Below, in pieces: positions 24,638 through 42,119 of a stretch of 42,119 bases of DNA. The stretch spans positions 1-42,119 of the forward strand of contig JAACWA010000011.1 in NCBI GenBank assembly GCA_009992175.1, in the 5' to 3' direction. Position numbers and translations under genes: made by a program. The first letter of the stretch is position 1. Each line of letters opens with the position of its first letter. This DNA is from an archaeon (GTDB lineage: Archaea > Nanobdellota > Nanobdellia > Pacearchaeales > GW2011-AR1). The notes below the pieces were generated by a model. That model made no database searches and was not told where the DNA came from. It saw only the letters and a list, made by a program, of their open reading frames with translations.

Positions 24638-25030
24638 ATGGAAACCTCAAAATTTTATGTAAAAATTGTGGGAATAATTTTTGACCCGAAAAAGAGAAAA
24701 CTCTTAATTGGAAAAAATGTAGGAGATGAAAGATACTCTTTTTTAGAAGGGGACTTAGGGTATGAGCAAGAATTGGATGAGAAGTTAAAAGAAGTAACAA
24801 AGGAAAAAACAGGATATAAAGTTCATAATTTGGGTGCAGTTTATGCAGAAAACATGCTAAAAAACCAAGAAAAATTAAAAATTCATTTTTTATGTGAAGC
24901 TACTGAAGGAGAAGAAAAACCGGGGGAAAATGTAGAAGAACTAGTTTGGGTTAAACCTTCTGAAATAGAAGAAAAACTGGGAGTAAAACTTCCATCAAGA
25001 TTAAGGGGATACTTAATTGGGTTAGAATAA
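24638..25030 (+). CDS. NUDIX-fold protein with degenerate Nudix box
   Basis: V.GIIFD...KLLIGK, G-x-EQELDEKLKEVTKEKTG and ELVWV motifs. Confidence 0.7.
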   Translation: METSKFYVKIVGIIFDPKKRKLLIGKNVGDERYSFLEGDLGYEQELDEKLKEVTKEKTGYKVHNLGAVYAENMLKNQEKLKIHFLCEATEGEEKPGENVEELVWVKPSEIEEKLGVKLPSRLRGYLIGLE

Positions 25031-25036
25031 ATTTCT

Positions 25037-25162
25037 ATGAAATTGAAAAAATGTGTGAATTGTTCTGAATATACTCTTAAAGAAATTTGTAAAAAATGTG
25101 GAAAGAAAACTTCTGAAGCCCATTATAAATTTATTAATTTGAAACCCTTTCAAAAAAAGTAA
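25037..25162 (+). CDS. nop10: Nop10-like zinc-ribbon protein (41 aa; not in ORF track)
   Basis: MKLKKCVNCSEYTLKEICKKCGKKTSEAHY matches the CxxC-YTLK-CxxCG-T-H pattern; lies near aIF2-alpha as in other archaea. Confidence 0.8.
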   Translation: MKLKKCVNCSEYTLKEICKKCGKKTSEAHYKFINLKPFQKK

Positions 25163-25203: not shown

Positions 25204-27024
25204 ATGGAAGATTTATTTGAAATAGATAAAGAAAAAAAAGATTTTTTTAGAGAAGCGATTGACTTTTTAGAAAAGTATAAAGAATTTTTTGATAGGGATT
25301 TGAATATTAAGGTGGGAAACTATCTCATTTTAGAAGACCATTCTAAAGAACAAATTTACGCTGGATTTTTTCAAAATCCTAAAGAAGAAATAAAAGAAGA
25401 AATAAGGAAGAAATTTGGAAAAGAAGTTCTAAAAATACTTGAAGAACAAAAAAAATTAAAAGAAATAATCAAAAAATCTAATAAAGAAAATAGTGAAATT
25501 TTAAGAAAAGTGATTATTTCTTCAATTGAAAATATTGAAGGGATTGAAATTGAAACTATATCTAAATTTATAGTCCTTTGTGAGAAAAAAGAAAAAAATC
25601 TTGCAAAGGAAATGAATGAATTCTATGCTCCTCTTTTGGGAAGATTAGGTTTAGAAAATATTAGAAAAAAAATACTAAATGAATCTTTCAAAATTTTAAA
25701 TCCCAAAAAATACTTAGAAATTTCTAATTTTCTTAAAATGTCTAAAAATGAAAGAGAAGAATTTATAAAAAAAATCATAAAAGAATTTGAGATAAGATTA
25801 AAAAAGGAATTAAAAGGAATTAAAATAAAGGGAAGAGAAAAACAAATTTATAGTATTTATGAAAAAATAACAAAAAGAAAGGTTCCATTAAACGAACAAA
25901 AAGATCAATTTGCAATAAGGATAATTACTCCAAATATTAAAGATTGTTATAGTGTATTTGAAATAATTTCTCAAGATTATGAAGTATTGGAAGAAACAAT
26001 AAAAGATTATATTAAAAATCAAAAAGAAAATGGATATCAATCCTTACACTTTTGCATTTTATTTGAAAAAAAACTTTTAGAAATACAAATAAGAACCAAA
26101 GAAATGGATGAATTTGCAGAAGAAGGAAAAGCTGCACATTGGGCATATAAAAAAATAAAGGGGGATAAAAAATTTGAAAAGAAAACAGGTTGGTTTAAAG
26201 AATTATTAAAGTTAAAAGAAAATAAGAACTCTTTAATTAATGAACTAAAAATTAATATTTTCCAGGATAAAATTTATTGTTATACTCCAAAAGGAAAAGT
26301 GATTGAATTAAAAAATGGTTCAACTGTCTTAGATTTTGCTTATAAAATTCATGCTGAAATAGGAAATCAGTCAATAGGAGGTGTAGTTGATGGAAAATTT
26401 GTTCCATTAAAAACAATTTTAAAAAACAACCAAACAATAGAAATTACCACAAATAAGTTTCAAAGACCAAGAAGAGATTGGATGAAATTTGTAAAGACTA
26501 GTTATGCCAAAAAGATTATTTCGAGGGAGGTAAAAAGATTTGAGAATATTCCTGTGCCCAGGTCAAAACCTCTTGAAAATTCTAAGGAAAACAAAACTGA
26601 AAACCCTGTAATAATGAAAGAATTTAAAAATCATTTGTTAACATTTGCAAAATGTTGTAATCCTCTCCCTGGAGAAAAAATAATTGGAATAATCAAATCC
26701 CATAAAAGGGGTTTAATACACAAAAAAGGATGTAATAGAATTAAAGAAGCAAAAAAAAACCAAGTAGAAGCATCTTGGAAAGAAACTTTTGAAAAACAAA
26801 TAAAATTAACAGTGGAGGGAAGAGATAGGCCAGGAATTTTGGCTGACATTTTGAACACCATCTCAAGAAAAGGATTTAAAGTCGTTGAAGCAAACGCAAA
26901 ATTAGCAGGAAATGAAAATACAGAATGTTATTTTATTTTAAAATTAAACTCTCTTGAAGAATTAGAAGAAATTATTGAAAGGGTTAAAAAAATAGAGGGA
27001 ATAAAAAAAATTTGGTTAGATTAA
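25204..27024 (+). CDS. Long RelA/SpoT homologue (pseudo-HD, synthetase, TGS, ZFD, ACT)
   Basis: YAPLLGRLG, GREKQIYSIYEK, DQFAIRII, KDYI...KENGYQSLH, EIQIRT..M...AE.G.AAHW.YK, TGS (YTPKG..LDFAYKIH), AKCCNPLPG and ACT (DRPGILADI) motifs. Confidence 0.93.
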   Translation: MEDLFEIDKEKKDFFREAIDFLEKYKEFFDRDLNIKVGNYLILEDHSKEQIYAGFFQNPKEEIKEEIRKKFGKEVLKILEEQKKLKEIIKKSNKENSEILRKVIISSIENIEGIEIETISKFIVLCEKKEKNLAKEMNEFYAPLLGRLGLENIRKKILNESFKILNPKKYLEISNFLKMSKNEREEFIKKIIKEFEIRLKKELKGIKIKGREKQIYSIYEKITKRKVPLNEQKDQFAIRIITPNIKDCYSVFEIISQDYEVLEETIKDYIKNQKENGYQSLHFCILFEKKLLEIQIRTKEMDEFAEEGKAAHWAYKKIKGDKKFEKKTGWFKELLKLKENKNSLINELKINIFQDKIYCYTPKGKVIELKNGSTVLDFAYKIHAEIGNQSIGGVVDGKFVPLKTILKNNQTIEITTNKFQRPRRDWMKFVKTSYAKKIISREVKRFENIPVPRSKPLENSKENKTENPVIMKEFKNHLLTFAKCCNPLPGEKIIGIIKSHKRGLIHKKGCNRIKEAKKNQVEASWKETFEKQIKLTVEGRDRPGILADILNTISRKGFKVVEANAKLAGNENTECYFILKLNSLEELEEIIERVKKIEGIKKIWLD

Positions 27025-27605
27025 AAAAATTTCTCTTGTGAAATTTCTTTTTTTACAATTTCCATATCTTTTTCCCAAAGTGGAAGTAATTTCCGATTGT
27101 AAATTATTGCGGCAGGATGAAATAAAGGAATGAGCTTAATTTCCACTCCATTAATTTTAACAAAATTAACTTTTCCATGAACTTGAGTAATTCCAGGTTG
27201 CTTACCCATCAATTCAAGATTTCCTTCACTTAAAAAAAATTTAGTTGAATAATTTCCGAGTGAACAAATTACTTTTGGTTTTATTTTTTTTATTTGTTCC
27301 AATAACCAAGGAGTGTGTGCCTTAATTTCTTCTGGTAAAGGGTCTCTGTTTTCAGGAGGTCTACATTTCAAAATATTTGCAACATAAATTTCATCCAAAC
27401 TAAGTCCAACATTACTAAGAAGTTTATCTAGATTTTTTCCTGAAGCCCCAACAAAAGGTAAACCTTGTAAATCTTCATTTTTTCCTGGAGCTTCCCCCAC
27501 AAAAAGAATATCAGAAGTAGGATTTCCCTTCCCAACAACAATGTTTGTGCAAAGCTTACAAATTTCTGTTTCTTTCACAAGACGAATATAATCTGGTTCA
27601 ACCAT
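27021..27605 (-). CDS. Uracil-DNA glycosylase family 4
   Basis: CKLC, VGEAPG..ED..G.PFVG, NILKCRPPENR and FHPAA motifs. ATG 27605 preferred on TATA spacing. Confidence 0.93.
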   Translation of the reverse strand: MVEPDYIRLVKETEICKLCTNIVVGKGNPTSDILFVGEAPGKNEDLQGLPFVGASGKNLDKLLSNVGLSLDEIYVANILKCRPPENRDPLPEEIKAHTPWLLEQIKKIKPKVICSLGNYSTKFFLSEGNLELMGKQPGITQVHGKVNFVKINGVEIKLIPLFHPAAIIYNRKLLPLWEKDMEIVKKEISQEKFF

Positions 27606-27653
27606 ACAAAAAAGAAAACAAATCTTTTTAAATAAATTTTTATTCAACCAATT

Positions 27654-28162: not shown

Positions 28163-29551
28163 ATGAAACTTAAAAAAAGTCTTTTACTTTTACTCTCTCC
28201 CCTCTTCCTAATAGGATGTTCAAATTTTCCAAATATTTCCAAAGAAGAAACTCCAAAACCTAAAATTGATACAGTTTATGTAACAAAAGAAATTCCAGTA
28301 AAAATAAATCCCCTTGACACTTTGAATGGACCTAATGCTTATTCAAAAGCAAAAGAATTTTTTGAAAGAGGACAAAATTTTTATGAAGAAGGAAAAGATG
28401 ATTCTTCAAAAGTTTATTTCCAAAAAGGAATGAGACTACTTTCACAATCAGCCCTTTCATTAGAAGATTATAATTTTATAGACCCTCTTGAAAATTTGTA
28501 CAACCTTGAACAATATAAATCACAAAAAGAAGCTTTAGAAAATGAAATAGAAGTTTCAAAAGAAGAGATAGCAAATGCTGAAAAAAAATTCCCAATGGGA
28601 GAAAGATTTGCAGAAAAAATTGCTTATTATAAAAAACTTTACGAAACTAGACAAAACAAATGGTTTATGAATTCCTTAGAAAAATTTTTACAATATAAAC
28701 CTTTTATAGATTCTGTCTCGAATGAAAAAGCAATTCCAAATTTGATAAAATATATGTATCCTGTAGAAAGTGGTATGGAAACCTACATAAAATCTAGAGC
28801 AGGAGCAAAAGGAATTGCTCAATTCATGACTCAAACAGCAAAATTATGGGGACTAAAAGTAATGGGAATCTGGTATGATGAGAGGATGGACCCATTAAAA
28901 GCAATCCCTGCTTCAATGGATTACATAAATTTTCTTTATTCTGATTTGGGGGATCCTAGTCTTGCAATAGCTGCTTACAACTGTGGAGAAGGAAGAGTCA
29001 TTGACAAATTAAAAAGATTTAACTCTTTTAACTTTGATGAACTTTTAAAAAAAAGAGTTTTGCCAAGAGAAACATTAGAACACCTTCCAAAAATATATGC
29101 ATATCAGGAAAAAAGCGAAGGAATAAATTTTGAAAATCCTAAAAAAGATACTATTCTAGACAATTTATTAACAAAAAATTTTGATACCTTAAATGTACAC
29201 CAACAAGCTAGTTTTGGAATTCTTGCAAAAATTTTGGGAATCTCAAAAAAAGATTTAAAAAAATATAATCCTGCATATGGGCTCGATGCAACCCCTCCAG
29301 AAAAAATAGTAAAAGGTGAATATTCTTTTGAAATAAGAGTTCCTAAAGGAACAAAAGAAAATTTAGTAAAAAAATTTTCAAAATTAAAAGAAAAGTATGT
29401 TTTTGAAGGGGGAACTTACACCATAAGAAAAGGAGATAACCTTGGAAAAATAGCAAGAAAATTTGGAGTTTCTTTATATCAATTAAAAAAAGCAAATGGA
29501 TTTCCAATAATTATTTATGCAGGACACAGATTAATTATTCCGGGAAATTAA
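28163..29551 (+). CDS. MltD-type lytic transglycosylase (GH23/SLT) with LysM, predicted lipoprotein
   Basis: Signal peptide ending LIGC, catalytic VESG, SRAGAKGIAQFM..TA..WGL, DERMDP, LAIAAYNCGEG, PRET, and C-terminal LysM YTIRKGDNLGKIARKFGVS...N....IYAGHRLIIP. Confidence 0.93.
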   Translation: MKLKKSLLLLLSPLFLIGCSNFPNISKEETPKPKIDTVYVTKEIPVKINPLDTLNGPNAYSKAKEFFERGQNFYEEGKDDSSKVYFQKGMRLLSQSALSLEDYNFIDPLENLYNLEQYKSQKEALENEIEVSKEEIANAEKKFPMGERFAEKIAYYKKLYETRQNKWFMNSLEKFLQYKPFIDSVSNEKAIPNLIKYMYPVESGMETYIKSRAGAKGIAQFMTQTAKLWGLKVMGIWYDERMDPLKAIPASMDYINFLYSDLGDPSLAIAAYNCGEGRVIDKLKRFNSFNFDELLKKRVLPRETLEHLPKIYAYQEKSEGINFENPKKDTILDNLLTKNFDTLNVHQQASFGILAKILGISKKDLKKYNPAYGLDATPPEKIVKGEYSFEIRVPKGTKENLVKKFSKLKEKYVFEGGTYTIRKGDNLGKIARKFGVSLYQLKKANGFPIIIYAGHRLIIPGN

Positions 29552-32744: not shown

Positions 32745-33014
32745 ATGAAATTAACTCTTAAAGATAAAATTGAATTAATCAATCTTTCAGAAAAGGCTTC
32801 GGATCTCTTAATAAAAGTTTTAGAAGAAAAAATTCCAAAAAAAGAAACTCCAACAAAAAATGATGTTGAATTTCAAAGAACTTTAACTTATATAAATAAA
32901 ATTTCTCCCCTTTTGTCAGAGGGATACACTAAAATGTACAATTATATTCAAGAAAAAAAATTAAATGAAAATAGCACTTATCTAAAAAAATTAACAAAAA
33001 ATGACACAAACTAA
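32745..33014 (+). CDS. Hypothetical protein
   Basis: 89-aa ORF with ATG and an upstream TATA-like element. Confidence 0.55.
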   Translation: MKLTLKDKIELINLSEKASDLLIKVLEEKIPKKETPTKNDVEFQRTLTYINKISPLLSEGYTKMYNYIQEKKLNENSTYLKKLTKNDTN

Positions 33015-33660
33015 AAAAGATTTGGAAAACATTAAAGAAAAGCTAATTGAACACATAAATTCCAATTATGAAAAATCGCAAGCAGAAGAATTTATAAAAA
33101 ATATAAAAGGGATGAATGATGAAGAATTTACTAAATTTTTAAAAGAACAAGGGTTAATTGGGGGGGAAAATCAAAAATCTCAATGTATCTTTTGCTCGAT
33201 TATTTTTGGAGATATTCCTTCCACTAAAATTGGAGAAAATGAAAAAGCGATTGCAATTTTAGATATAAAACCAGCTTCATTAGGACATTCTTTAATAATT
33301 CCTAAAGAACATATTGAATCAAAAGAAAAGTTACCTGGAGAAGTAGGTAAATTGGCAATCACAATTCAGGAAAAACTAAAGAAAACTTTTAATCCTAAAA
33401 AAATAGACTTAATTTCAACAAATGTTATGGGCCATGAAGTTTTGAACGTTCTCCCTATTTATGAAGAGGAATCTCTTGAATCGGATAGAAAAAACTTAAC
33501 CCCCGAAGAATTAAAAAAAGTAAAAGAAAAAATAGAAAAAGAAACTAAAAAAGAAGAACCCAAAGTTAAAGAAAAAGATAATAACAAAGAAGATTCGGAA
33601 GAAAAAACAAAAGAAGAAATTAATGAAAAAAATACTTGGCTCCCAAAAAGGATTCCTTAA
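33001..33660 (+). CDS. HIT-family protein with degenerate histidine triad
   Basis: CIFCSI..G.IPS.KI.E...A.LDI.P...GHSLIIPKEH present; the triad region reads VMGHEVLNVLP. Confidence 0.82.
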   Translation: MTQTKKDLENIKEKLIEHINSNYEKSQAEEFIKNIKGMNDEEFTKFLKEQGLIGGENQKSQCIFCSIIFGDIPSTKIGENEKAIAILDIKPASLGHSLIIPKEHIESKEKLPGEVGKLAITIQEKLKKTFNPKKIDLISTNVMGHEVLNVLPIYEEESLESDRKNLTPEELKKVKEKIEKETKKEEPKVKEKDNNKEDSEEKTKEEINEKNTWLPKRIP

Positions 33661-34511
33661 AACCCAATACTTCTAAAAAACAAATCAAAAAAAGTTGTCT
33701 CTAAAAAAATCCAAAGAAGAATAAAACTAATAAGAAAAACTGGAGCAAACTGAATTCCATAACGAATCAATACCTTTTTTCCTCTTTTCTTTAAACGATT
33801 AATTTCTTCTTCACTAAGTCCATCCCAATTTGCTCTAAAAGTTTTACCTTTAACTTTAATGTCTTCGCTTAACCAATCTCCTGGAGTCAATTTAGAGGGA
33901 ATAACTTCACGCACCATACAAAAATCATCAACAGATTTTAAGAATAAATAAAAATAAGGAAAAACAAAAATAAGAATTCCAAAATAAAAGAGATAATTGA
34001 TATAAAAACTTAACAAGATAAAAACAAAAGCAAAGAAGGTACCCCAAATTATCAATTTTTTATTTTTATTAAATAAAACTAAAAATCCTTTTTTAAATTT
34101 TTTAAAATTAATAACTCCAATTATTAAACTTAAAAATATTCCATATATTGCTCCCACAAAAAGATAAATCAAAATAAACAATAAAAATAATTTCAAATTC
34201 TGAGCAAAACTAGAAAAAATAGGAAGAACAGCTCCTAAAGAAATCATAAGTTTCATATCTCCTCCAGCAAACATTTTATTATAATAAAATAAATTTCCCA
34301 ACACTAAAAAAATTGAAAAACCTAAAATTCCTTGATAAAAAAGTGAAAAATCAGTTGAAACAAAAAGAGAGTAAAAAAACCTAAATCCAAAAGCAAAAGC
34401 AATTAAACTAAAATTAAGCCAATTTGGAATCTCTCTAGATTTGAGGTCTGAAATTACTGCAAAGATTAACCACACAAAGGCCAACCCATATAAAAAAATT
34501 ACCTCAATCAT
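33657..34511 (-). CDS. Prepilin/prearchaellin peptidase (A24, PibD/FlaK-like)
   Basis: SDLKSREIPNW and AGGDMKL aspartates, GDW..EDI insert and C-terminal FAPVFL. Confidence 0.9.
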   Translation of the reverse strand: MIEVIFLYGLAFVWLIFAVISDLKSREIPNWLNFSLIAFAFGFRFFYSLFVSTDFSLFYQGILGFSIFLVLGNLFYYNKMFAGGDMKLMISLGAVLPIFSSFAQNLKLFLLFILIYLFVGAIYGIFLSLIIGVINFKKFKKGFLVLFNKNKKLIIWGTFFAFVFILLSFYINYLFYFGILIFVFPYFYLFLKSVDDFCMVREVIPSKLTPGDWLSEDIKVKGKTFRANWDGLSEEEINRLKKRGKKVLIRYGIQFAPVFLISFILLWIFLETTFFDLFFRSIGF

Positions 34512-34542
34512 CAAGATAAATAGGATTTAGAGTTTATAAAAA

Positions 34543-34692
34543 TTAATTTTTCTTCTTTTTCTTTTTGTCAGCCGATTCTTTCATCTTGATATTTCCAAGC
34601 CTAAACTTTCCCCCTGTTTTGTAGGGATGCTTCTTCTTCTCTCTGAGCTTATCTTTCTTCTTATTTCTTCTTTCTTCACTATCTCTTGCCAT
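34543..34692 (-). CDS. 49-aa highly basic protein (not in ORF track)
   Basis: MARDSEERRNKKKDKLREKKKHPYKTGGKFRLGNIKMKESADKKKKKKN; TTTAAA element about 21 nt upstream. Confidence 0.6.
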   Translation of the reverse strand: MARDSEERRNKKKDKLREKKKHPYKTGGKFRLGNIKMKESADKKKKKKN

Positions 34693-34752
34693 AAATATCT
34701 AAAGAAGAATAAGTTTAAAACAATTACTAATTATTAAAAAACAAATAAAAGA

Positions 34753-35196
34753 CTAATTAATAAAACACTTGTCTTCTTTTGCTAAAGAACTAACATCATA
34801 CTTTCCTGTGCTTACACTGTTAACTCCTTTCTTTCCATCAATTACAATGTCTTCACATTTTAAATCACAAGAGATTGAGGCACATGAAGGAATTTTATAT
34901 TTTGCAAAAGTTTTTTCGCTTGAAAAAACTGCACAACTAGATTTAATCTTTAAATTATCTTCATTTGATTTCAAAGTTCTCTCACCAGAACAATAACCAT
35001 ATTGATTGTTTAAAGTACATGCAACATTACAATCGTCAATAACCGAATCTACATTTGAGGGATTAAAATATTTCTGAAAAGCACTCCATCCTGTGGCAAA
35101 ACCCCAAACAAGAGCAACAAGAACAATTAAACCTAAAATTAAAAGAATTATGGTATTTGTACTCATCCCTTGTCCTTTTTTATTTTGAATTGTCAT
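34753..35196 (-). CDS. Pilin-like protein (class III signal peptide), Cys-rich
   Basis: NKKG/QGMSTNTIILLILGLIVLVAL; 8 Cys in the globular part. Confidence 0.8.
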   Translation of the reverse strand: MTIQNKKGQGMSTNTIILLILGLIVLVALVWGFATGWSAFQKYFNPSNVDSVIDDCNVACTLNNQYGYCSGERTLKSNEDNLKIKSSCAVFSSEKTFAKYKIPSCASISCDLKCEDIVIDGKKGVNSVSTGKYDVSSLAKEDKCFIN

Positions 35197-35238
35197 CTCT
35201 CTTCAAGTAAATAGAGTAAAAAATATTTATAAAACTTC

Positions 35239-35598
35239 CTATGAGGGGACCTGGTACTGAACTGAAAACAAAAGAACCTTTTTACCTCCAAAAAATAAGA
35301 CTCCCCCCTTGGTCTCAAACTTTTCTTCATAAAAATAATTTCTCCCGTACTCCTCTGTAATATTAAAAAAAGTTTTTAATTTGTCCTCCTTCATTCCATT
35401 ATTTTTATAAAAAGAATATTCATCCGCATTTGAATTAACCTTTTGTAAGATACTTATTCCTACAAAAGAATTACCTGCCCTAAAATCTGAAATAAAAAAG
35501 GTGAGAAGGGCAAATCCACAAAGAGCAAAAATTCCAATAACTAAAAGAGTTACTGGAAGGTCTCCTTTCTTATTAAAAGTTTTAATTTTTTTAATCAT
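35239..35598 (-). CDS. Pilin-like protein
   Basis: NKKG/DLPVTLLVIGIFAL. Confidence 0.75.
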   Translation of the reverse strand: MIKKIKTFNKKGDLPVTLLVIGIFALCGFALLTFFISDFRAGNSFVGISILQKVNSNADEYSFYKNNGMKEDKLKTFFNITEEYGRNYFYEEKFETKGGVLFFGGKKVLLFSVQYQVPS

Positions 35599-35930
35599 TT
35601 TTTACTATATCTCAAAGCAACCTCCGCTTTTGTTTGATTATAATCTAAATTAAATTTATCTTCACTTGCCATTTTAGAAAGAGTTTTTTCCATAATCAGT
35701 CTTTTTGTTTCAGAACCAATTGAAACATAAGTGAAAAGAGATTTTTTCAAAAAAGGGTCTCCTCCCTCAAATGAAGATTTTCCAGTAATTCCTGGACGGA
35801 AATTTCCTATCTTTTTTGTTCCCCCCAAAAGAGAAGCTCCAAAAATAAAAAAAACCATCATAATTACAATTAAAATAGTTGCAACTAACCAAGTTAGAGT
35901 CTCACCTATTTGTGCTTTTTTAGTTTTCAT
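35595..35930 (-). CDS. Pilin-like protein
   Basis: MKTKKA/QIGETLTWLVATILIVIMM; ATG 35930 preferred. Confidence 0.78.
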   Translation of the reverse strand: MKTKKAQIGETLTWLVATILIVIMMVFFIFGASLLGGTKKIGNFRPGITGKSSFEGGDPFLKKSLFTYVSIGSETKRLIMEKTLSKMASEDKFNLDYNQTKAEVALRYSKK

Positions 35931-35931
35931 T

Positions 35932-36606
35932 TTAATTTGTGTTTTCTTCAACTTTCCCCACAATTGAAAGAACCTTAATCAAATAAACTGAATCTGAATT
36001 TAATTTCGCAAAAAATTCCTGATTAAAACAAGTTGCAAGTTTACTTTTTCCTGAAACGGAAACATCACAATCAGATTTCCAATTTTTATTCCCTTCTGAA
36101 ATTAAAAGAGAAGATTTTCTTAAATCTTCCTCTAAAAAAAATTCAACTTCGAAGTAATAAGGGGGCCTTTTAAATTCTTCATTAATTGTTAAATTTAAAG
36201 AACATTTTTCTAAAAAATTATCTTTAAAGTCTTCTCTGAATCCTCCTTGGTTATTTAATAAAAGAGGATTAAATTCCCCCCCAAAATAAATACAATCTGC
36301 AACTTTTTGACCTAAAATTTCGGATTCTTGCTTTCTTACATCATAATTTTTTCCATAAAAAGAATTTACCATTAACACTACTCCTACTGCAACAATAACA
36401 AGAATTGCAAACCAGTAAATAGAAAGAAGTTTATCTCCCTTTTTATTTATGCCCTTGGGAGTATTTATGCCCTTGGGGGTATTTATGCCCTTGGGAGTAT
36501 TTATGCCCTTTAGGGTATTTATGCCCTTGGGAGTATTTATGCCCTTTAGGGTATTTATGCCCTTGGGAGTATTTATGCCCTTTAGGGTATTTATTTTTTT
36601 TATCAT
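35932..36606 (-). CDS. Pilin-like protein with repeat-expanded leader
   Basis: (INT[P/L]KG)x8 then INKKG/DKLLSIYWFAILVIVAVGVV. Confidence 0.8.
   Translation of the reverse strand: MIKKINTLKGINTPKGINTLKGINTPKGINTLKGINTPKGINTPKGINTPKGINKKGDKLLSIYWFAILVIVAVGVVLMVNSFYGKNYDVRKQESEILGQKVADCIYFGGEFNPLLLNNQGGFREDFKDNFLEKCSLNLTINEEFKRPPYYFEVEFFLEEDLRKSSLLISEGNKNWKSDCDVSVSGKSKLATCFNQEFFAKLNSDSVYLIKVLSIVGKVEENTN
36445..36594. repeat. Tandem repeat, 8 x 18 bp plus 6 bp
   Basis: Unit ATTTATGCCCTT(GGGA/GGGG/TAGG)GT; two variants alternate. Confidence 0.97.
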
Positions 36607-37016
36607 TTTATTTTTGAAAAAGTTAAGATATAAAATCCTTCACGGCCAGGATCAGTATCCTTGTACGCGGTCACATTTATATCATTAAAGAAGTGATACT
36701 TTGTTCCTCCTTTTTCGCTTAATTTAATTGTAACATCATTTCCTTCAATTTTTAAAATATCTGAAAAATCAATTCCATTTTTATCTGAAACTTCTTTTAA
36801 ATCTTGAAGATTCACATACATTTTCATTGTGGGTCTTGCTGAATCAATCAAAAGAGCTATATTCTTAGAATATGCATCTTCAAGTAAAACTGCTCCACTT
36901 CCTTGTTTAATAAGAAATAAAACAAGAATCATTAAAAAAAGAATATTTAGAACAATAAAGATTATATTCTCCACCAAAAACTCTCCTCTTTTATTTTTAC
37001 CTTTGAATGAGTTCAT
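36603..37016 (-). CDS. Pilin-like protein
   Basis: NKRG/EFLVENIIFIVLNILFLMIL, with Glu at +5. Confidence 0.78.
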   Translation of the reverse strand: MNSFKGKNKRGEFLVENIIFIVLNILFLMILVLFLIKQGSGAVLLEDAYSKNIALLIDSARPTMKMYVNLQDLKEVSDKNGIDFSDILKIEGNDVTIKLSEKGGTKYHFFNDINVTAYKDTDPGREGFYILTFSKIK

Positions 37017-37051
37017 AACTTAGAGAAGAAAAAAGGAATTAATAAAGTTTT

Positions 37052-37960
37052 TTAACTTGAAGTTAAAATTTGATCACAATTTAAAGCCTTAAATTCAGGA
37101 GAATTTACTTCAACAATCCAGGAAGGAACATATTCATTTCCACTTTGTCCTCTTACAACCGCAGCAACCAAAACTCCTCCAGTAAGCCCGGTAACAACTC
37201 CTCCAGCAACTGCAACCTTTGCTCCAGTTAGTAATGCTGCTGCACCAAATCCACTCGCTCCTCCTGTTAAAGGAGTCAAAGCAAGACCTCCTGCAACGAG
37301 ACCTGCACCCGCTCCAATTCTCCAAATCCATCCCCAAGTACTAACATCACTAGTAATTCCCATCAAAGAATAATATTGTTTATCCAAATTTATTTTTCCA
37401 TAATCTCCAGAATAAGAACTAAGAAAGTTTCTTAAATTTAAATAATCTAGATAAGTCTGGCCATCAGCTCTTTTTGTTTTATCAAGATAATTATAAAGTT
37501 CCTTTTTATCAAATTCTCCAGTTCCATTAAAAATTTCTTTTTTAACCGAATCATCAAAAGCTATCATGTCACAAATTGAACATTGCAAATCAGGAATTAC
37601 TTCCGAACCCACATAATTTACCTTACCCTCACCAAACATCCACCAACATTCTGCTAATTGGTCCGCAAGAGCTTGATAAATTTCATCCTTTGTCTCAACT
37701 TTAATGACATCTGGTTTAGTCATTACTTCACAACTTCCATCCACACTTAAACAAAGATACTCTCTTTTACATTGTAATGGAAAAGTGTCAGTGGGTAAAA
37801 TTGATTTTCCCCGGGTTATAACAGAATTGTGACATATATCTTGTTCAGTTTCTTTTCCTAAATTCAACCTAAAAATAAAAAATAAAATAACTGCAAAACT
37901 TACAACTAAAATTATTAAAATAACAATTTGTTGTGTTGTAAGTTCTCCTTTTTTAAACAT
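37052..37960 (-). CDS. Pilin-like protein with C-terminal Gly/Ala-rich hydrophobic segment
   Basis: MFKKG/ELTTQQIVILIILVV, Cys-rich middle (LAECWWMFGEG, CSICD) and a Gly-zipper tail. Confidence 0.82.
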   Translation of the reverse strand: MFKKGELTTQQIVILIILVVSFAVILFFIFRLNLGKETEQDICHNSVITRGKSILPTDTFPLQCKREYLCLSVDGSCEVMTKPDVIKVETKDEIYQALADQLAECWWMFGEGKVNYVGSEVIPDLQCSICDMIAFDDSVKKEIFNGTGEFDKKELYNYLDKTKRADGQTYLDYLNLRNFLSSYSGDYGKINLDKQYYSLMGITSDVSTWGWIWRIGAGAGLVAGGLALTPLTGGASGFGAAALLTGAKVAVAGGVVTGLTGGVLVAAVVRGQSGNEYVPSWIVEVNSPEFKALNCDQILTSS

Positions 37961-38062
37961 CTAAATTACCCCCAGATTTCTAAACAAAGTATAAAGTCCT
38001 ATTAAAGCTATCGAAAAAAATACAATCCAGATAAGATATTTTATGAATTCATCTAAATTCAT
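37961..38062 (-). CDS. 33-aa single-TM microprotein (not in ORF track)
   Basis: MNLDEFIKYLIWIVFFSIALIGLYTLFRNLGVI; ATGA overlap upstream and abuts the next start. Confidence 0.7.
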   Translation of the reverse strand: MNLDEFIKYLIWIVFFSIALIGLYTLFRNLGVI

Positions 38063-38565
38063 TTTTTCTTAACCTCAATTTTATCTTCAGATTTGGAAAT
38101 TTCAACATTTGTTCCCCCATTAGATGGTTTTTCTATTTCGAAAGTAGTAAATTTGTTTAAATTTTCTACTATCAAGCAAACTCCTGAATTGTCACACTCA
38201 CTAATTTGTCTGTCTTTAAACCATAAAGCATTGTCAAAACTAACTTCATCACAAATACATAAACAATTTTCTCCTGCACAAGAATTAGGTTTGGTTTCTC
38301 CCCCTACAAAACTAAAAATGCTCCATGAAGAAGGAGTAATGTCTGTTAATTTTTCACTAGAAATATCTCCTGAATTAACCCTTTGAAGAATCTCTTTCAT
38401 TCTTCCAATCGTTGACTTTGCCTCATTTAATTTTTGATCCTGAGAACTTGAATAATAGATAGAAAATAAAAGATAAATTAAAAGAGAAATTCCAATTAAA
38501 GCAATAACTAATTTTACTACTTCTGTTGCGAGAAACATCCCTTTTTTATTCTTTTTTTTATCCAT
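38059..38565 (-). CDS. Pilin-like protein, Cys-rich
   Basis: NKKG/MFLATEVVKLVIALIG and C.GENCLCIC motif. Confidence 0.8.
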   Translation of the reverse strand: MDKKKNKKGMFLATEVVKLVIALIGISLLIYLLFSIYYSSSQDQKLNEAKSTIGRMKEILQRVNSGDISSEKLTDITPSSWSIFSFVGGETKPNSCAGENCLCICDEVSFDNALWFKDRQISECDNSGVCLIVENLNKFTTFEIEKPSNGGTNVEISKSEDKIEVKKK

Positions 38566-38728
38566 AAAAAATTCTCCAAAAGTTTCCTAAGCTAGCGTTC
38601 GTTGGAAGAAGATTAAAAAATTCCAAAATTCTATCTTTAAAAATAAAATAAACTCCTAAAACTACAGCGACAACTACAAGAGCTCCAACAATTAATTTAA
38701 TTATTTGTTCTACCGTTAATTCCGACAT
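38558..38728 (-). CDS. 56-aa pilin-like microprotein without basic leader (not in ORF track)
   Basis: MSELTVEQIIKLIVGALVVVAVVLGVYFIFKDRILEFFNLLP...; GGAGG Shine-Dalgarno upstream. Confidence 0.7.
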   Translation of the reverse strand: MSELTVEQIIKLIVGALVVVAVVLGVYFIFKDRILEFFNLLPTNASLGNFWRIFYG

Positions 38729-38734
38729 TTTATT

Positions 38735-38905
38735 TTATCCTCCCCTAAAAATTCCTTTTAATCCATCTAAAACGGAAATCCCCTTTCCCTTTAAGAAAAA
38801 AATTGAAATCATTAAAACAGTAAGGATAGCAAGAGAAATTAAAATCCATGGAAGATACTCTGAAACAATTCCTTTTTTACCAAAAAATCTCCTCTTTCTA
38901 TTCAT
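38735..38905 (-). CDS. 56-aa pilin-like microprotein (not in ORF track)
   Basis: MNRKRRFFGKKG/IVSEYLPWILISLAILTVLMISIFFLKGKG... Confidence 0.75.
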   Translation of the reverse strand: MNRKRRFFGKKGIVSEYLPWILISLAILTVLMISIFFLKGKGISVLDGLKGIFRGG

Positions 38906-38948
38906 AAAATTAAGAAGTTAAATGGATTTAATAAAGATTACTAAAACC

Positions 38949-41099
38949 TTATCCTAGTAAACCACTAAGCACAGTTCCACTTAAAATTGAAAGGGCAAGA
39001 ACACTTAAAAGTGCAACAATGAAATAAAGAATCATTCCTTTCTTTAAATTAATTCCAATTTTATTTGTCATTTCTAATTTGTCTTCCCCTGAATCAATTG
39101 TTACAAGTGTTGAAGTTAAAATAAAAATTATTTCAATTAAATAAATTCCAACAGAAATTTGTAAAAAATATGGAGGAATCATGTCCTTATATTTAAAAAT
39201 ATCAACCAAATTTCCAATGGAACCTAAACTACTTGCCCCCACCCCGGAGAGGTCAGCAACATTTAACATCCCCAAAATTGAAGTAATCATCGCTGCAAGA
39301 CCAACAACAATTCCTGAAAGAAGAGGAGCTAAAAAAGTCATATTACTTTTCATGTCACTAGTAATTTCTGCGAGTAAATCTCTTAACCTCATCGTAATCT
39401 TATCTAAATTTTTTATATATTCAGAAATACTCATTAAACTCACAGCTGCAATTTTTAATCCTTTTTTACTTGATTCAATTAAAACCCTCATTGAAGTTGA
39501 AATCAAATCCGAGGGGAAAAATCTTATTGCTCCCCTAGTTTTGTCAAAGATTGCTTTTTCGACACTCATTCCCATTTGTCGAATATTATAATTTACTTTT
39601 CCAAAAAATTCTCCAGTCATAAGGCCTCTATTTGATTCTGCAACTTTACCAAAAACCAATTCCGGAGGAACTCCATTTCCAAGTCTATTCCCCAATTGAA
39701 ATAATGAATTATTGAATTCACTCTCAAGTTCTTTTGTTTTCTTTCTCTCTTTAATTAAATCTTTTGTTTTTTCTTTATACGCGATTGAAAAATAAAGAGC
39801 AATTGAAATTGGAAAAAGCATTCCTAAAAGAAGTGCTCCAAGTCCAAAGGGACCTTTAACTCCCGTAGGAGTTTCAATAAAATCAAAAAAGTTTCCATTT
39901 CCTAAAAAACTAAGTCCAACTTGACTAAAAGAAAAATCTTTTGCAATTCCGAGTGATTCTGGAATAGGTGTAAACTGAAAGATTAAGGGAATTAAACTTA
40001 AAATTATGAATGGCAATACTATCCAAAAAGCTTTTCTGTAGGGGGCACTACTTTTATACTTAGGATAAAGAGGATTTTTTTCAAGCAAAGTTGTTTCTCC
40101 ATATCCTCCTGGACGCATATTCAAAACTTTATCTGTTAAGTAATAAACCATAAAAGGAACAATTAAGTTAAACAAAATAAAAACATGAACATAAGTTAAA
40201 ATTCCTCCAATCATTGCTGAAGCAAGAGGAATTAAAGCTAAACCTAAAGTGGGTAAAACTACTCCCAACATATACACATTTGTTAATGGACTTCTAACCG
40301 AATGACTAAATTTAAGCATCTTCTCATAAACTCCATCAAGAACAACTTGTAATCCTTTTTCTAAAGTTGAAATACGACGTGAAGAATCTGGTTCAAATAA
40401 ACTAGATTCAATTAAGTGAAAACCTTCAATAAATTCTGTAGAATATCCTCTCCAACTTTCTAAGTAGTGATCTAAACTTTCTTTAATTGTGGAATATTTC
40501 CCTATTTCAACATTATAGAATATTTTTTTGAAATCAAGTGCAAGAGGATATTGTAAATGTTCTGATGCAAACTGAATTGCTTTTTCTAAATTGGGAGTGT
40601 GTCTCATATAAACCACAATATAAAGAATTGCAGGTACCATTTGACTTGATGCCTTAAGCCTCCATTTGTTAGCAAGTCTCTCAGGATATTGATTCAAAAA
40701 ATAAAAAAGAAAAATTGAAAAAATAACCATTAAAAAAAAGAAAAGAAAAGGAAACTCACTTCCAATTAAAGTTACACCAACTGAAAACAAAAGTCCAATT
40801 AAAAAAACTGCTAAAAATGCAGTAACTGAAAGCCCTATCGCTTGCCAAGGTTCAACAGAAAGGTGAGCAGATTCTAAACTTTTAACAATTTTCTCTTCAT
40901 CTTTTTTAGAAGGTTTTATATGAATAAAATTTCCAAGGCTGTTAGCCCATCTTTCATAAGTTGTATACTCTCTTGAAATTTCTCCCTTAAATTTGTCATA
41001 TGAACTACTGTAATCACTAACACTACCAGAAGAATTCATTTGACCTTCTATTTTAGCTCCATATTTTTTCAAAACCTCATCTACACTTTCTCTTTTCAA
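38949..41099 (-). CDS. Type IV pilus/T2SS platform membrane protein (TadC/FlaJ-like, two T2SS-F-like domains)
   Basis: Two cytoplasmic domains (MRHTPNLEKAI..A; LFQLGNRLGNGVPPE) each followed by TM helices; TTG start with GAGGTG Shine-Dalgarno; adjacent to the pilin array. Confidence 0.78.
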   Translation of the reverse strand: MKRESVDEVLKKYGAKIEGQMNSSGSVSDYSSSYDKFKGEISREYTTYERWANSLGNFIHIKPSKKDEEKIVKSLESAHLSVEPWQAIGLSVTAFLAVFLIGLLFSVGVTLIGSEFPFLFFFLMVIFSIFLFYFLNQYPERLANKWRLKASSQMVPAILYIVVYMRHTPNLEKAIQFASEHLQYPLALDFKKIFYNVEIGKYSTIKESLDHYLESWRGYSTEFIEGFHLIESSLFEPDSSRRISTLEKGLQVVLDGVYEKMLKFSHSVRSPLTNVYMLGVVLPTLGLALIPLASAMIGGILTYVHVFILFNLIVPFMVYYLTDKVLNMRPGGYGETTLLEKNPLYPKYKSSAPYRKAFWIVLPFIILSLIPLIFQFTPIPESLGIAKDFSFSQVGLSFLGNGNFFDFIETPTGVKGPFGLGALLLGMLFPISIALYFSIAYKEKTKDLIKERKKTKELESEFNNSLFQLGNRLGNGVPPELVFGKVAESNRGLMTGEFFGKVNYNIRQMGMSVEKAIFDKTRGAIRFFPSDLISTSMRVLIESSKKGLKIAAVSLMSISEYIKNLDKITMRLRDLLAEITSDMKSNMTFLAPLLSGIVVGLAAMITSILGMLNVADLSGVGASSLGSIGNLVDIFKYKDMIPPYFLQISVGIYLIEIIFILTSTLVTIDSGEDKLEMTNKIGINLKKGMILYFIVALLSVLALSILSGTVLSGLLG

Positions 41100-41159
41100 A
41101 ATTGCTCACCTCTGAAATAACAGTTAAAAATAATTAATAAATGTTTAGAAAACCAAGTT

Positions 41160-42080
41160 TTACGGAGAAGGGTTTGTGGCATTATCTCCTAAAATACATT
41201 TTCTATAATTAACAGAGCCAAGAGAAACAATATTTAGAATTCTACACCCTATAGATTTGAAGAGTCCTGTTTGGGTGTCTATTTGAGCTCCTAAACCAAT
41301 ACAAATTCCATTTGAACATTGATTACTAGAACACTCATAATTATTTTGACATTTGATTAAAACATCTTTAACTCCCTCTTTTTGGGGTTTTACAGTCCCA
41401 TCAATATCACAATAAGCATTAATTGTATCTGCAACTCTTCCTAGAGCAGTATAGGTTAAAGTGAGACGAATATAACTGTTCTCATAATTTTCAGAATCAT
41501 AAAAAACTTCATCAACAAAGAAACTTAAGTTTGTGATTTCATTTTGCCATCCTTCAACATTCACTTTAACTGTATCTCCCTTAACAAAAGTATAGTTCTG
41601 GTTCCCCCAATCTTTAACATTAAATTTCACAACTCCCTTTGGAGAAATAGAAAAACTGACTCCTTCGTCTTGAGTATCATTTATTCTTAAAGTTACAGAT
41701 TGTTTTCCATCTTGTAATTCAAGATTCCATCCAATTTGACTCTCAAACCTAAATCCATAAGGGATACACCTGTTATCTCCAATTGCATTACTTTCAAACC
41801 ACTTTGGAACCAAACATCCAGAACAAATTCCTGGATTACAAGAAATCTGACTCTTTATTTCTTGATTTTCACAACCATAATCTTTACAAGTTTGAGTTTG
41901 ATATCCATATTCTGGACAAATAGTAGGTTCAGTTATACAAATCCATTGAGGACTACAAAAATCTTGAGGAATTTCAGAAGGACAAATATTTATTGAATTA
42001 AAAACTTGATTCGAAAAAAGCCATTCAAGATCGAAATGTTTCCAATCTAAATATTTGGCTCGATTGTCTTCTAAAGAATA
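41160..42080 (-). CDS. 3' part of a Cys-rich extracellular protein, 5' end missing or interrupted
   Basis: CP.YGYQTQTC.D.GC and CQNNYECSSNQCSNGIC motifs; no signal peptide in the window; the frame runs into an IS-like end. Confidence 0.75.
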   Translation of the reverse strand, partial: YSLEDNRAKYLDWKHFDLEWLFSNQVFNSINICPSEIPQDFCSPQWICITEPTICPEYGYQTQTCKDYGCENQEIKSQISCNPGICSGCLVPKWFESNAIGDNRCIPYGFRFESQIGWNLELQDGKQSVTLRINDTQDEGVSFSISPKGVVKFNVKDWGNQNYTFVKGDTVKVNVEGWQNEITNLSFFVDEVFYDSENYENSYIRLTLTYTALGRVADTINAYCDIDGTVKPQKEGVKDVLIKCQNNYECSSNQCSNGICIGLGAQIDTQTGLFKSIGCRILNIVSLGSVNYRKCILGDNATNPSP

Positions 42081-42119
42081 TGACGTCCTCCGCACCCTGA
42101 AGGTTTGATGCTTCGCATC
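42081..42119 (-). mobile_element. Probable right end of an IS200/IS605-type (TnpB) element or derived MITE
   Basis: The minus strand reads GATGCGAAGCATCAAACCTTCAGGGTGCGGAGGACGTCA: GC-rich, with hairpins GATGC-GAA-GCATC and CCT-TC-AGG, resembling the GAAGC...CCTTCAGG...GGAGGATGTCA right-end pattern. Confidence 0.5.

Follow-up and report, generated by a model that had tools for sequence, protein, structure and literature searches.

The stretch of DNA analyzed here (the window; 42,119 nucleotides, contig JAACWA010000011.1 of assembly GCA_009992175.1) comes from an archaeon of the lineage GW2011-AR1 within the Pacearchaeales (Nanobdellota), and encodes a complete long RelA/SpoT homologue (RSH). 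The gene lies between a Nop10-like open reading frame (ORF) and a convergent uracil-DNA glycosylase (UDG) gene, and its product joins an N-terminal domain of HD type to the synthetase (SYNTH), TGS, zinc-finger and ACT domains (Table 1). An earlier note on this DNA had taken the gene for that of a synthetase-only long RSH which lost hydrolysis in the fashion of RelA, in a genuine archaeon, and this is in agreement with every sequence-level test that was run. In our assessment the protein is probably an archaeal long RSH with a single activity, that of a synthetase.

The TGS, zinc-finger and ACT domains named in the earlier note were all found. Pfam assigns RelA_SpoT (PF04607) to residues 210–317 with 114.2 bits (cut-off 27; 119.2 bits when the whole genome was searched), TGS (PF02824) to residues 357–416 with 72 bits, and ACT_4 (PF13291) to residues 533–603 with 47 bits, PF01842 scoring 29 bits; the zinc finger is recognized by C484-C485, H506 and C510. 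SYNTH is preceded by an N-terminal HD fold, which aligns with the N-terminal domains of Rel, RelA and SpoT and contains only helices in the predicted structure, and to which the HD_4 profile matches weakly (residues 47–150, profile positions 37–155, 30.9 bits against a cut-off of 27.2). With the NCBIfam profiles for RSH subfamilies, the query reaches neither the cut-off of the spoT_relA subfamily TIGR00691 (391.6 bits, cut-off 499.2) nor those of the SpoT equivalog (288 bits, cut-off 947) and the RelA equivalog NF008124 (284.4 bits, cut-off 728). The closest sequences in the PDB are those of Bacillus subtilis Rel (6yxa, 3.3e-75), about 40% identical over SYNTH and TGS, and of ribosome-bound Escherichia coli RelA (5iqr, 3.7e-75), for which a second aligned stretch, RelA 589–695, spans the zinc-finger and ACT region of the query. 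An AlphaFold2 model, calculated from 120 aligned rows of long RSHs from archaea and bacteria, has a mean predicted local distance difference test (pLDDT) value of 92.4 and a predicted template-modeling score (pTM) of 0.88; pLDDT falls to 60 near residues 451–460 in the linker, and the ACT region assumes a β-α-β-β-α-β order. The best Foldseek matches are ribosome-bound RelA (5iqr, at the top), full-length SpoT (7qpr) and B. subtilis Rel (6yxa), and the compact model superposes best on full-length SpoT (TMq 0.51–0.53).

For the alignment of active sites, the SpoT and RelA sequences of the E. coli K-12 record served as reference. In the hydrolase domain the query reads AGFFQN, as reported in the earlier note, aligned to GGFLHD of B. 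subtilis Rel, with Gln-Asn replacing the His-Asp pair of SpoT. The loss of the KLADRxHN motif, likewise reported, is borne out by ETISKFIVL opposite KLADRTHNM in SpoT, and the R..SG..Y..H loop is deleted. The eight columns of the hydrolase signature (R39, H48, H72, D73, E76, D77, D139 and N143 of SpoT, reportedly catalytic residues) read -LQNEESV in the query and RHHDEDDN in E. coli SpoT, and the bifunctional signature is thus absent. The signature was scored as missing at all eight positions in 12 of 12 sequences from the genus, the query included, and the equivalent of SpoT D73 is kept in none of the 120 closest database homologues. An active-site Asp is essential for hydrolysis (available text of 10.1101/575399). 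By sequence, the N-terminal HD domain is a pseudo-enzyme, in which the helical scaffold has been kept and every metal-binding or catalytic position lost.

The synthetase site presents the opposite picture of a complete set of motifs, as the earlier note had claimed. Motif by motif, the SYNTH blocks match the 90% consensus drawn from 92 long RSHs of bacteria (GRxK..YSIY, D..A.R, CY, KDYI..PK.NGYQSLH and E.QIRT..M...AEEG.AAHW.YK), and all 20 columns that are invariant over 120 archaeal and bacterial long RSHs carry the invariant residue in the query: R211, K213, K221, D234, R239, D268, Y278, H282, E293, Q295, M301, G308 and Y315 in SYNTH, and P362, D377, H383, G387, C485, H506 and C510 in TGS and the zinc finger. 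H383 of TGS, identical in 120 of 120 rows, aligns with His432 of RelA, a residue needed there to sense uncharged tRNA. By these comparisons the catalytic and substrate-binding residues of a monofunctional alarmone synthetase are intact.

A further structural difference concerns the segment between TGS and the zinc finger. From W426, the conserved Trp after TGS, to C484, the first zinc-finger Cys, there are 58 residues in the query, and this span measures 49–63 residues in 42 other archaeal rows as against 116–139 in 32 bacterial rows, while the remaining distances between motifs are alike to within a few residues in archaeal and bacterial rows. Of the four C-terminal modules of a long RSH, TGS, the CC..H..C zinc finger and ACT are present, and the AH module is for the most part missing. 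Judged by this spacing, the helical domain that bacteria have at this place is shorter by about 70 residues in the archaeal enzymes, a deletion shared by all 54 archaeal forms. The N-terminal stretch up to the APLxxRLG motif is also short, with 148 residues in the query, 157–193 in the other archaeal and 168–253 in the bacterial sequences. On account of the loss of about 70 linker residues, ribosome binding in the bacterial manner cannot be assumed. The missing helical linker constitutes a defined difference, and it could show which C-terminal parts are needed for ribosome sensing.

Pairwise ratios of nonsynonymous to synonymous substitution (dN/dS; Nei-Gojobori) between the orthologues in the genus are 0.11–0.20 for the whole gene, and 0.09–0.13 for SYNTH, 0.08–0.14 for TGS and 0.18–0.32 for the pseudo-HD domain, these being rough figures because dS is near saturation (0.8 to >2). 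The mean amino-acid identity over 12 orthologues is 0.64 for SYNTH, 0.70 for TGS and 0.46 for the pseudo-HD domain. The RSH gene is under purifying selection in all domains, with no ratio nearing 1, and the relaxed selection (dN/dS near 1) that the earlier note had named as a ground for abandoning its claim was not seen. The dead HD domain is relaxed, yet not free, as in RelA (available text of PMC3153485).

Since the 120 closest homologues are biased toward the query, 40 RSH genes belonging to further families in the phylum and two from the query's order were added. A complete hydrolase signature is present in 30 of these 42 archaeal RSHs from outside the genus; it is degenerate in families f20 (4/4), f23, f30 (2/2), f19 and f57, partial in f91, and degenerate in one of two members of f55. 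In a FastTree phylogeny (LG+gamma) of 54 archaeal and 32 bacterial rows, the latter comprising 30 representatives from the top hits and two E. coli proteins, the query falls within the archaeal group, which is split from the bacterial rows with a support of 1.0; with FastTree as the only method and an outgroup drawn from top hits, archaeal monophyly holds for that sample alone. The pseudo-HD sequences of f30, f19, f23, f20 and the genus form a clade (support 0.887), within which f23, f20 and the genus are united with a support of 1.0, as is the genus by itself. HD_4 scores amount to 88–133 bits in the genes tested from f19, f20, f23, f30 and f57, to 39–43 bits in three other members of the genus and to about 31–34 bits in the query. 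This fits a single loss of the catalytic Asp and progressive decay thereafter, while f57, f91 and f55 would each have acquired lesions separately. The RSH of the genus groups with RSHs of another order and not with those of its own order (G033, G038), which are intact; either transfer within the phylum or many losses would have to be assumed. In a larger alignment and tree, from which rows of fewer than 560 residues were left out, a second group of short (610–640 residues) long RSHs with variously degenerate hydrolase signatures (P0141–P0235) lies between the archaeal group and the bacterial enzymes, and may stem either from other DPANN phyla or from bacteria with small genomes.

The separate small alarmone hydrolase (SAH), for which the earlier note had suggested a search, was found in the genome of the window (G000; 609 kb, 45 contigs, 83.7% complete). 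A family search of the contigs returned a second HD_4 gene with 55.6–58.4 bits against a cut-off of 27.2, located on another contig (C40). Its product has all the motifs of the hydrolase site intact, i.e., H..Q.RK.GG.PY..H, ALLHDTLEDT and KLADRLNN, and its closest matches in the PDB are human MESH1 (3nr1, 6e-17), 5vxa and Drosophila Mesh1 (3nqw). The neighbors of this gene (L016, 749–2952) are ORFs of 228 and 221 residues without a Pfam match and a PIN-like protein of 123 residues. Two Nudix genes in the same genome score above the Pfam cut-off. The available text of the 2011 RSH survey (PMC3153485) notes archaeal and eukaryotic synthetases that lack an RSH-type hydrolase, and suggests Nudix enzymes as substitutes.

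Among the 22 other genomes of the genus, eight have both the RSH and an orthologue of this SAH, three have the RSH without the SAH (G010, G011 and G019; 82, 78 and 93% complete), three have the SAH without the RSH (G001, G016 and G020), and eight have neither, one of these (G002) possessing a divergent stand-alone HD_4 ORF. A one-sided Fisher test on these counts, computed by hand, gives about 0.04, a value that overstates the co-occurrence because the genomes are kin. Outside the genus, stand-alone hydrolases were found in G104 (HD_4 search) and G212 (protein search).

The surroundings of the RSH gene are archaeal. The window also encodes RadA, eIF2-alpha, S3Ae, Gins51, SRP54 and its receptor, a ribosomal protein with an S13/S15 N-terminal domain, a DHH/RecJ-like protein and a RIO-type kinase, and its G+C content is 25–34% throughout, that of the RSH gene being equally low. 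Twelve RSH-bearing loci of the genus display, in whole or in part, the order eIF2-alpha, Nudix-like gene, Nop10, RSH, UDG (opposite strand) and NDK, and the Nop10-like ORF adjoins the Nudix-like gene in 14 loci of the genus that were examined. The name Nop10 is presumptive and was given from the CxxC...CxxC pattern and the eIF2-alpha/Nop10 gene order of other archaea. The UDG gene overlaps the RSH stop codon by 4 nt. Across the genomes of the genus the identity of the RSH (50–72%) tracks that of eIF2-alpha (54–80%). The Nop10/RSH junction is bridged by contigs from four of four other aquifer or groundwater runs, possibly of one campaign, and one such contig spans 23800–28200 in one piece; short joints with sides of 21–23 letters were low-complexity matches and were disregarded. 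Named relatives come from records labeled Nanoarchaeota, Pacearchaeota or 'archaeon', and a locus search with the RSH protein alone returned two close archaeal loci in addition to distant matches resembling small alarmone synthetases (SAS).

Table 1 Features of the RSH locus and the separate hydrolase gene (window coordinates unless a contig is given)
Feature	Position	Strand	Description
Long RSH ORF	25204..27024	+	606 residues plus stop, complete, ATG start
Pseudo-hydrolase (HD) domain	25204..25788	+	residues 1–195; all-helical; about 25–40 residues shorter than in relatives
SYNTH domain	25789..26238	+	residues 196–345; from PF04607, motif comparison and invariant columns
TGS domain	26239..26463	+	residues 346–420; PF02824; includes H383
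Short linker replacing the bacterial AH domain	26464..26637	+	residues 421–478; from the W426-to-C484 spacing
Zinc-finger/ribosome-intersubunit domain	26638..26793	+	residues 479–530; C484 C485 ... H506 ... C510
ACT (RRM-like) domain	26794..27021	+	residues 531–606; PF13291, PF01842
TATA-box-like element TTATATAA	25174..25181	+	23–30 nt upstream of the ATG
Nop10-like zinc-ribbon ORF	25037..25162	+	41 residues; CxxC...CxxC; upstream boundary of the RSH slot
UDG	27021..27647	-	PF03167, 118 bits; downstream boundary of the RSH slot
Mesh1-like SAH	contig C40 of the same genome, 19449-19964	-	172 residues; HD_4, 58.4 bits

The TATA box that the earlier note placed ahead of the gene is present, but its sequence, TTATATAA, is as a bare string not enriched in the window (three occurrences against 2.1 expected; 40 of 100 shuffles reach three), and the string was rejected as a statistical signal. 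What stands is its position: of the 12 orthologues in the genus, nine have a TATATA core at about -31 to -22 relative to the ATG, and a tenth has TTATAAA there. It is because of this positional conservation of the core, and not because of the string itself, that the element is likely to be the archaeal promoter of a leaderless or short-leader transcript, and the RSH gene is probably transcribed on its own. A search for sequencing runs that contain the sequence listed none of RNA, a result that speaks neither for nor against expression.

Two neighbors were considered as partners of the RSH and rejected. NDK, encoded two genes downstream, is not a functional partner by the evidence of gene order, as the succession Nop10, UDG, NDK also occurs without the RSH. 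The Nudix-like gene was rejected as a dedicated alarmone hydrolase since it is found in 22 of 22 genomes of the genus regardless of the RSH. This gene is an ORF of 130 residues (24638-25030, forward strand) between eIF2-alpha and Nop10, conserved with 63–80% identity in these 22 genomes; its likeness to Nudix proteins was seen by eye, but the Nudix box departs from the regular pattern and Pfam returns no match at E 0.01.

An orthologue of the RSH is present in 11 of the 22 other genomes of the genus (protein query). In the wider phylum, a long RSH was found in 171 of 400 genomes (43%), all of them at least 90% complete, and in 130 of 280 genera, the query's own included; the query's own family accounts for only 2 RSH-bearing genomes out of 27 in this set. 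Viewed from the Nop10/UDG junction, the RSH is cleanly absent from at least seven genomes of the genus. Nop10 is followed directly by UDG or NDK in G002, G005, G013, G017, G018 and G020, UDG being the next gene in the RSH-less G005, G013, G017 and G018, and in G014, also without the RSH, UDG follows across a gap of 430 nt. What comes after Nop10 in G001, G004, G008 and G016 is neither UDG nor NDK.

The statement of the earlier note that most archaea lack long RSHs agrees, for archaea at large, with the available text of the 2011 survey, which has no long RSH in archaea (PMC3153485), but does not apply to this phylum, with 171 of 400 genomes positive, and the distribution among the DPANN archaea makes the gene less surprising than had been claimed. 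A 2021 paper gives RelA/SpoT in 69.0% of Diapherotrites, 41.7% of Woesearchaeota, 21.3% of Pacearchaeota and 19.0% of Nanoarchaeota, and predicts that the DPANN genes are of bacterial origin by lateral transfer (available text of PMC8407392). The family and its presence in DPANN archaea are therefore already known and not new. The available text of PMC8407392 contains nothing on the state of the hydrolase, linker length or partner hydrolases, and no earlier description of hydrolase-dead or short-linker long RSHs from archaea was found in the literature searched, in which that paper alone mentions the genes, with subscription journals and the supplements of Jimmy et al. 2020 (13 long-RSH subfamilies) lying outside the search. 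What seems to be new is the hydrolase-dead sublineage, the free hydrolase partner in the genus, the linker deletion throughout the clade, and the presence/absence polymorphism in a fixed slot.

Comparison with E. coli RelA (RelA[hS] in PMC3153485, as available) shows the same retained but inactive HD scaffold, an active-looking SYNTH, and the TGS, zinc-finger and ACT domains; the His that aligns with H432 is kept, and hydrolysis would be left to another protein. The query is, however, not an orthologue of RelA (NF008124, 284 bits against 728), and belongs to the archaeal group whereas RelA falls in a bacterial subclade. It carries TIKD in place of EFDD, so that the EXDD motif is missing, its linker between TGS and the zinc finger is 58 residues long as compared with 137 in RelA, its N-terminal stretch to APLxxRLG counts 148 residues as compared with 189, and its partner is a small Mesh1-like protein and not a long SpoT. 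The loss of the hydrolase site is set apart as independent of that in proteobacterial RelA, since the query scores far under the RelA equivalog cut-off and has xxKD, not EXDD. To the bifunctional Rel/SpoT enzymes (6yxa, 7qpr) it is related by its best sequence match, 6yxa, and by the KD half of RXKD, which is kept, and it differs from them in having no R-H-HD-ED-D-N signature, a score under the TIGR00691 cut-off and a short AH linker. The other long RSHs of Nanoarchaeota and DPANN archaea share with it the family, the phylum and the short-linker architecture (610–675 residues), but 30 of 42 keep the full hydrolase signature, which the query lineage is without. The protein encoded on contig C40 resembles MESH1 and other SAHs in being a single HD_4 domain with all catalytic motifs; its gene is far from that of the synthetase and shares no operon with it, and is found in three genomes of the genus that have no RSH.

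As a synthetase-only enzyme, the RSH would form (p)ppGpp with ATP as the pyrophosphate donor and the 3'-OH of GDP or GTP as the acceptor, and its C-terminal region would keep it off until a signal is received, the likeliest being an uncharged tRNA whose 3' end is sensed by TGS when a ribosome stalls. Given a helical linker that is some 70 residues shorter ahead of the zinc finger, the geometry of sensing would have to differ from that in bacteria. In the genome of the window, the alarmone would be removed in trans by the Mesh1-like SAH, possibly with the help of Nudix hydrolases, and a RelA-plus-hydrolase division of labor would then have arisen independently of the Proteobacteria. As to history, the long RSHs of the phylum stand as one group apart from the bacterial sample, mostly bifunctional as far as their residues tell, and the hydrolase site would have been lost in one nested lineage, with decay proceeding furthest in the genus of the query, where the gene occupies a fixed slot between Nop10 and UDG and would have been lost from many members. 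We put forward only tentatively the more extensive proposal that DPANN archaea have a working alarmone cycle and that the lineage of the query has split it, independently of the Proteobacteria, between a sensor-coupled, synthetase-only RSH and a free Mesh1-like hydrolase, with the RSH docking on the archaeal ribosome via TGS, zinc finger and ACT although most of the helical linker is missing, and with uncharged tRNA on the stalled archaeal ribosome triggering (p)ppGpp formation. A true ribosome-coupled stringent response is, in our estimate, rather doubtful, and if real would be the first in the domain Archaea.

Several of the observations weigh against these proposals. With the shortened linker, activation by the ribosome may fail or take a different form. 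The score for TIGR00691 lies below the cut-off, and the dN/dS values and the archaeal monophyly carry the restrictions given above. The RXKD/EXDD motif, whose meaning is taken from the available text of PMC3153485, reads TIKD in the query and.lKD in the consensus of 120 archaeal homologues, and the substrate preference is unreadable because TIKD corresponds to neither form. The SAH occurs without the RSH in three genomes of the genus, and whole-genome searches with Pfam HD_4 did not find a stand-alone hydrolase in 9 of 10 pseudo-HD genomes (G051, G201, G127, G130, G422, G050, G010, G011 and G019; 78–100% complete). In the first six of these (92–100% complete) HD_4 matches only the RSH's own N-terminal domain. 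A rule that a pseudo-HD RSH is always accompanied by an SAH is thereby rejected, and the partnership with a hydrolase acting in trans is not general.

The shortage of partner hydrolases is also the point at which two other explanations gain. If nothing is synthesized, the many pseudo-HD genomes without a detectable hydrolase are harmless, as would be expected were the protein a catalytically silent relic or a pure regulator that persists as a factor binding tRNA, the ribosome or, through ACT, a small molecule; the certain loss of the hydrolase site, the score under TIGR00691, and the dispensability of the gene, whose slot between Nop10 and UDG or NDK is cleanly vacant in seven genomes, are compatible with this as well. 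Such a silent protein is nevertheless unlikely, as every synthetase residue that is invariant over 120 long RSHs has been kept and SYNTH is the slowest or second-slowest domain (dN/dS 0.09–0.13; identity 0.64 against 0.46 for the pseudo-HD domain); had the synthetase been silent, decay like that of the HD domain would be expected. That the enzyme is still bifunctional and hydrolyzes the alarmone at a remodeled, non-canonical N-terminal site appears very improbable: none of the four metal ligands (H, HD, D) has been kept, nor has the ED pair, and their replacements vary between close orthologues (LQNEESV, LQNKEFD, AVMEDTL), which is the pattern of an unselected site; the R..SG..Y..H loop is deleted, and in E. 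coli RelA the scaffold is likewise retained although it is inactive (available text of PMC3153485). This is despite the conservation of the N-terminal domain as a confidently predicted helical bundle with dN/dS of 0.18–0.32, and despite there being no separate hydrolase in three RSH-positive genomes of the genus and six pseudo-HD genomes of other families.

An active synthetase with another product or acceptor, making (p)ppApp or pyrophosphorylating tRNA 3' ends and serving as a switch for growth arrest or defense and not as a stringent factor, is quite improbable. The atypical specificity motif TIKD and the patchy, accessory-like distribution in the genus would agree with it, as would the TGS domain, which in relatives presumably reads tRNA 3' ends, and the (p)ppApp hydrolase 7smg is, weakly (E 0.0012), among the PDB matches of the SAH. 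On the other hand, the acceptor-side motifs of long RSHs that use GDP or GTP are kept (KDYI, PK.NGYQSLH), no antitoxin-like gene adjoins the RSH, whose housekeeping neighbors are also present where it is absent, and the toxic synthetases are single-domain SAS and not long RSHs (available text of 10.1101/575399). A bacterial contaminant or a chimeric assembly (the earlier note had named a bacterial contig origin as a possible refutation) could be suspected inasmuch as bacteria are the typical carriers of long RSHs and lateral transfer from them is predicted for the DPANN genes (available text of PMC8407392), but we reject it as hardly credible. The gene is as low in G+C as the rest of the contig and has archaeal genes on either side, its gene order is repeated in 11 other genomes of the genus (12 with the query), and its identity tracks that of eIF2-alpha; the junction is spanned in four further runs, homologues exist in 171 of 400 genomes of the phylum, and an archaeal-type TATA element precedes it at a conserved distance.

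The synthetase-only reading thus bears on whether some archaea, here a tiny one from groundwater, use the bacterial (p)ppGpp signal. As late as 2021 and 2023, reviews call archaeal (p)ppGpp undescribed or undetected and count its enzymes as rare in this domain (available texts of PMC8646023 and PMC10249747), yet 43% of 400 genomes of this phylum carry a full-length RSH. The lineage of the query offers a natural experiment, as the family comprises in related archaea apparently bifunctional forms and forms with single-residue lesions of the hydrolase site, and here a pseudo-hydrolase in complete decay, with a free hydrolase gene at another place in the genome; this would repeat the RelA/SpoT split by another route. 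Being small (606 residues for the query) and confidently folded in silico, these proteins are reasonable candidates for expression in ppGpp-null E. coli, through which the use of (p)ppGpp by archaea and the reading of the archaeal ribosome by a long RSH could be tested.

Other genes of the window deserve brief mention. On the same contig, a HIT-domain protein (33001-33660, forward strand; 42 bits) is a candidate nucleotide-signal enzyme, its family including dinucleoside-polyphosphate hydrolases. A protein of 462 residues encoded at 28163-29551 (forward strand) carries a lipoprotein-like signal at its N-terminus and a LysM domain at its C-terminus, together with an SLT lytic transglycosylase domain (75 bits), i.e., it is a predicted peptidoglycan-cleaving enzyme in an archaeon, which could serve contact with, or attack on, bacteria; a homologue follows NDK in at least one other genome of the genus (L006). 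Two large reverse-strand ORFs, of 1753 residues (3-5261, running off the end of the window) and 611 residues (5258-7093), have no Pfam match at E 1e-4 and may encode surface or host-contact proteins of the type common in small symbiotic archaea. Finally, a type IV prepilin-like peptidase (A24; 33657-34514, reverse strand) is followed by nine Pfam-negative ORFs of 119–716 residues on the same strand, and this cluster (33657-42095) may specify a pilus or an archaellum-like surface structure.

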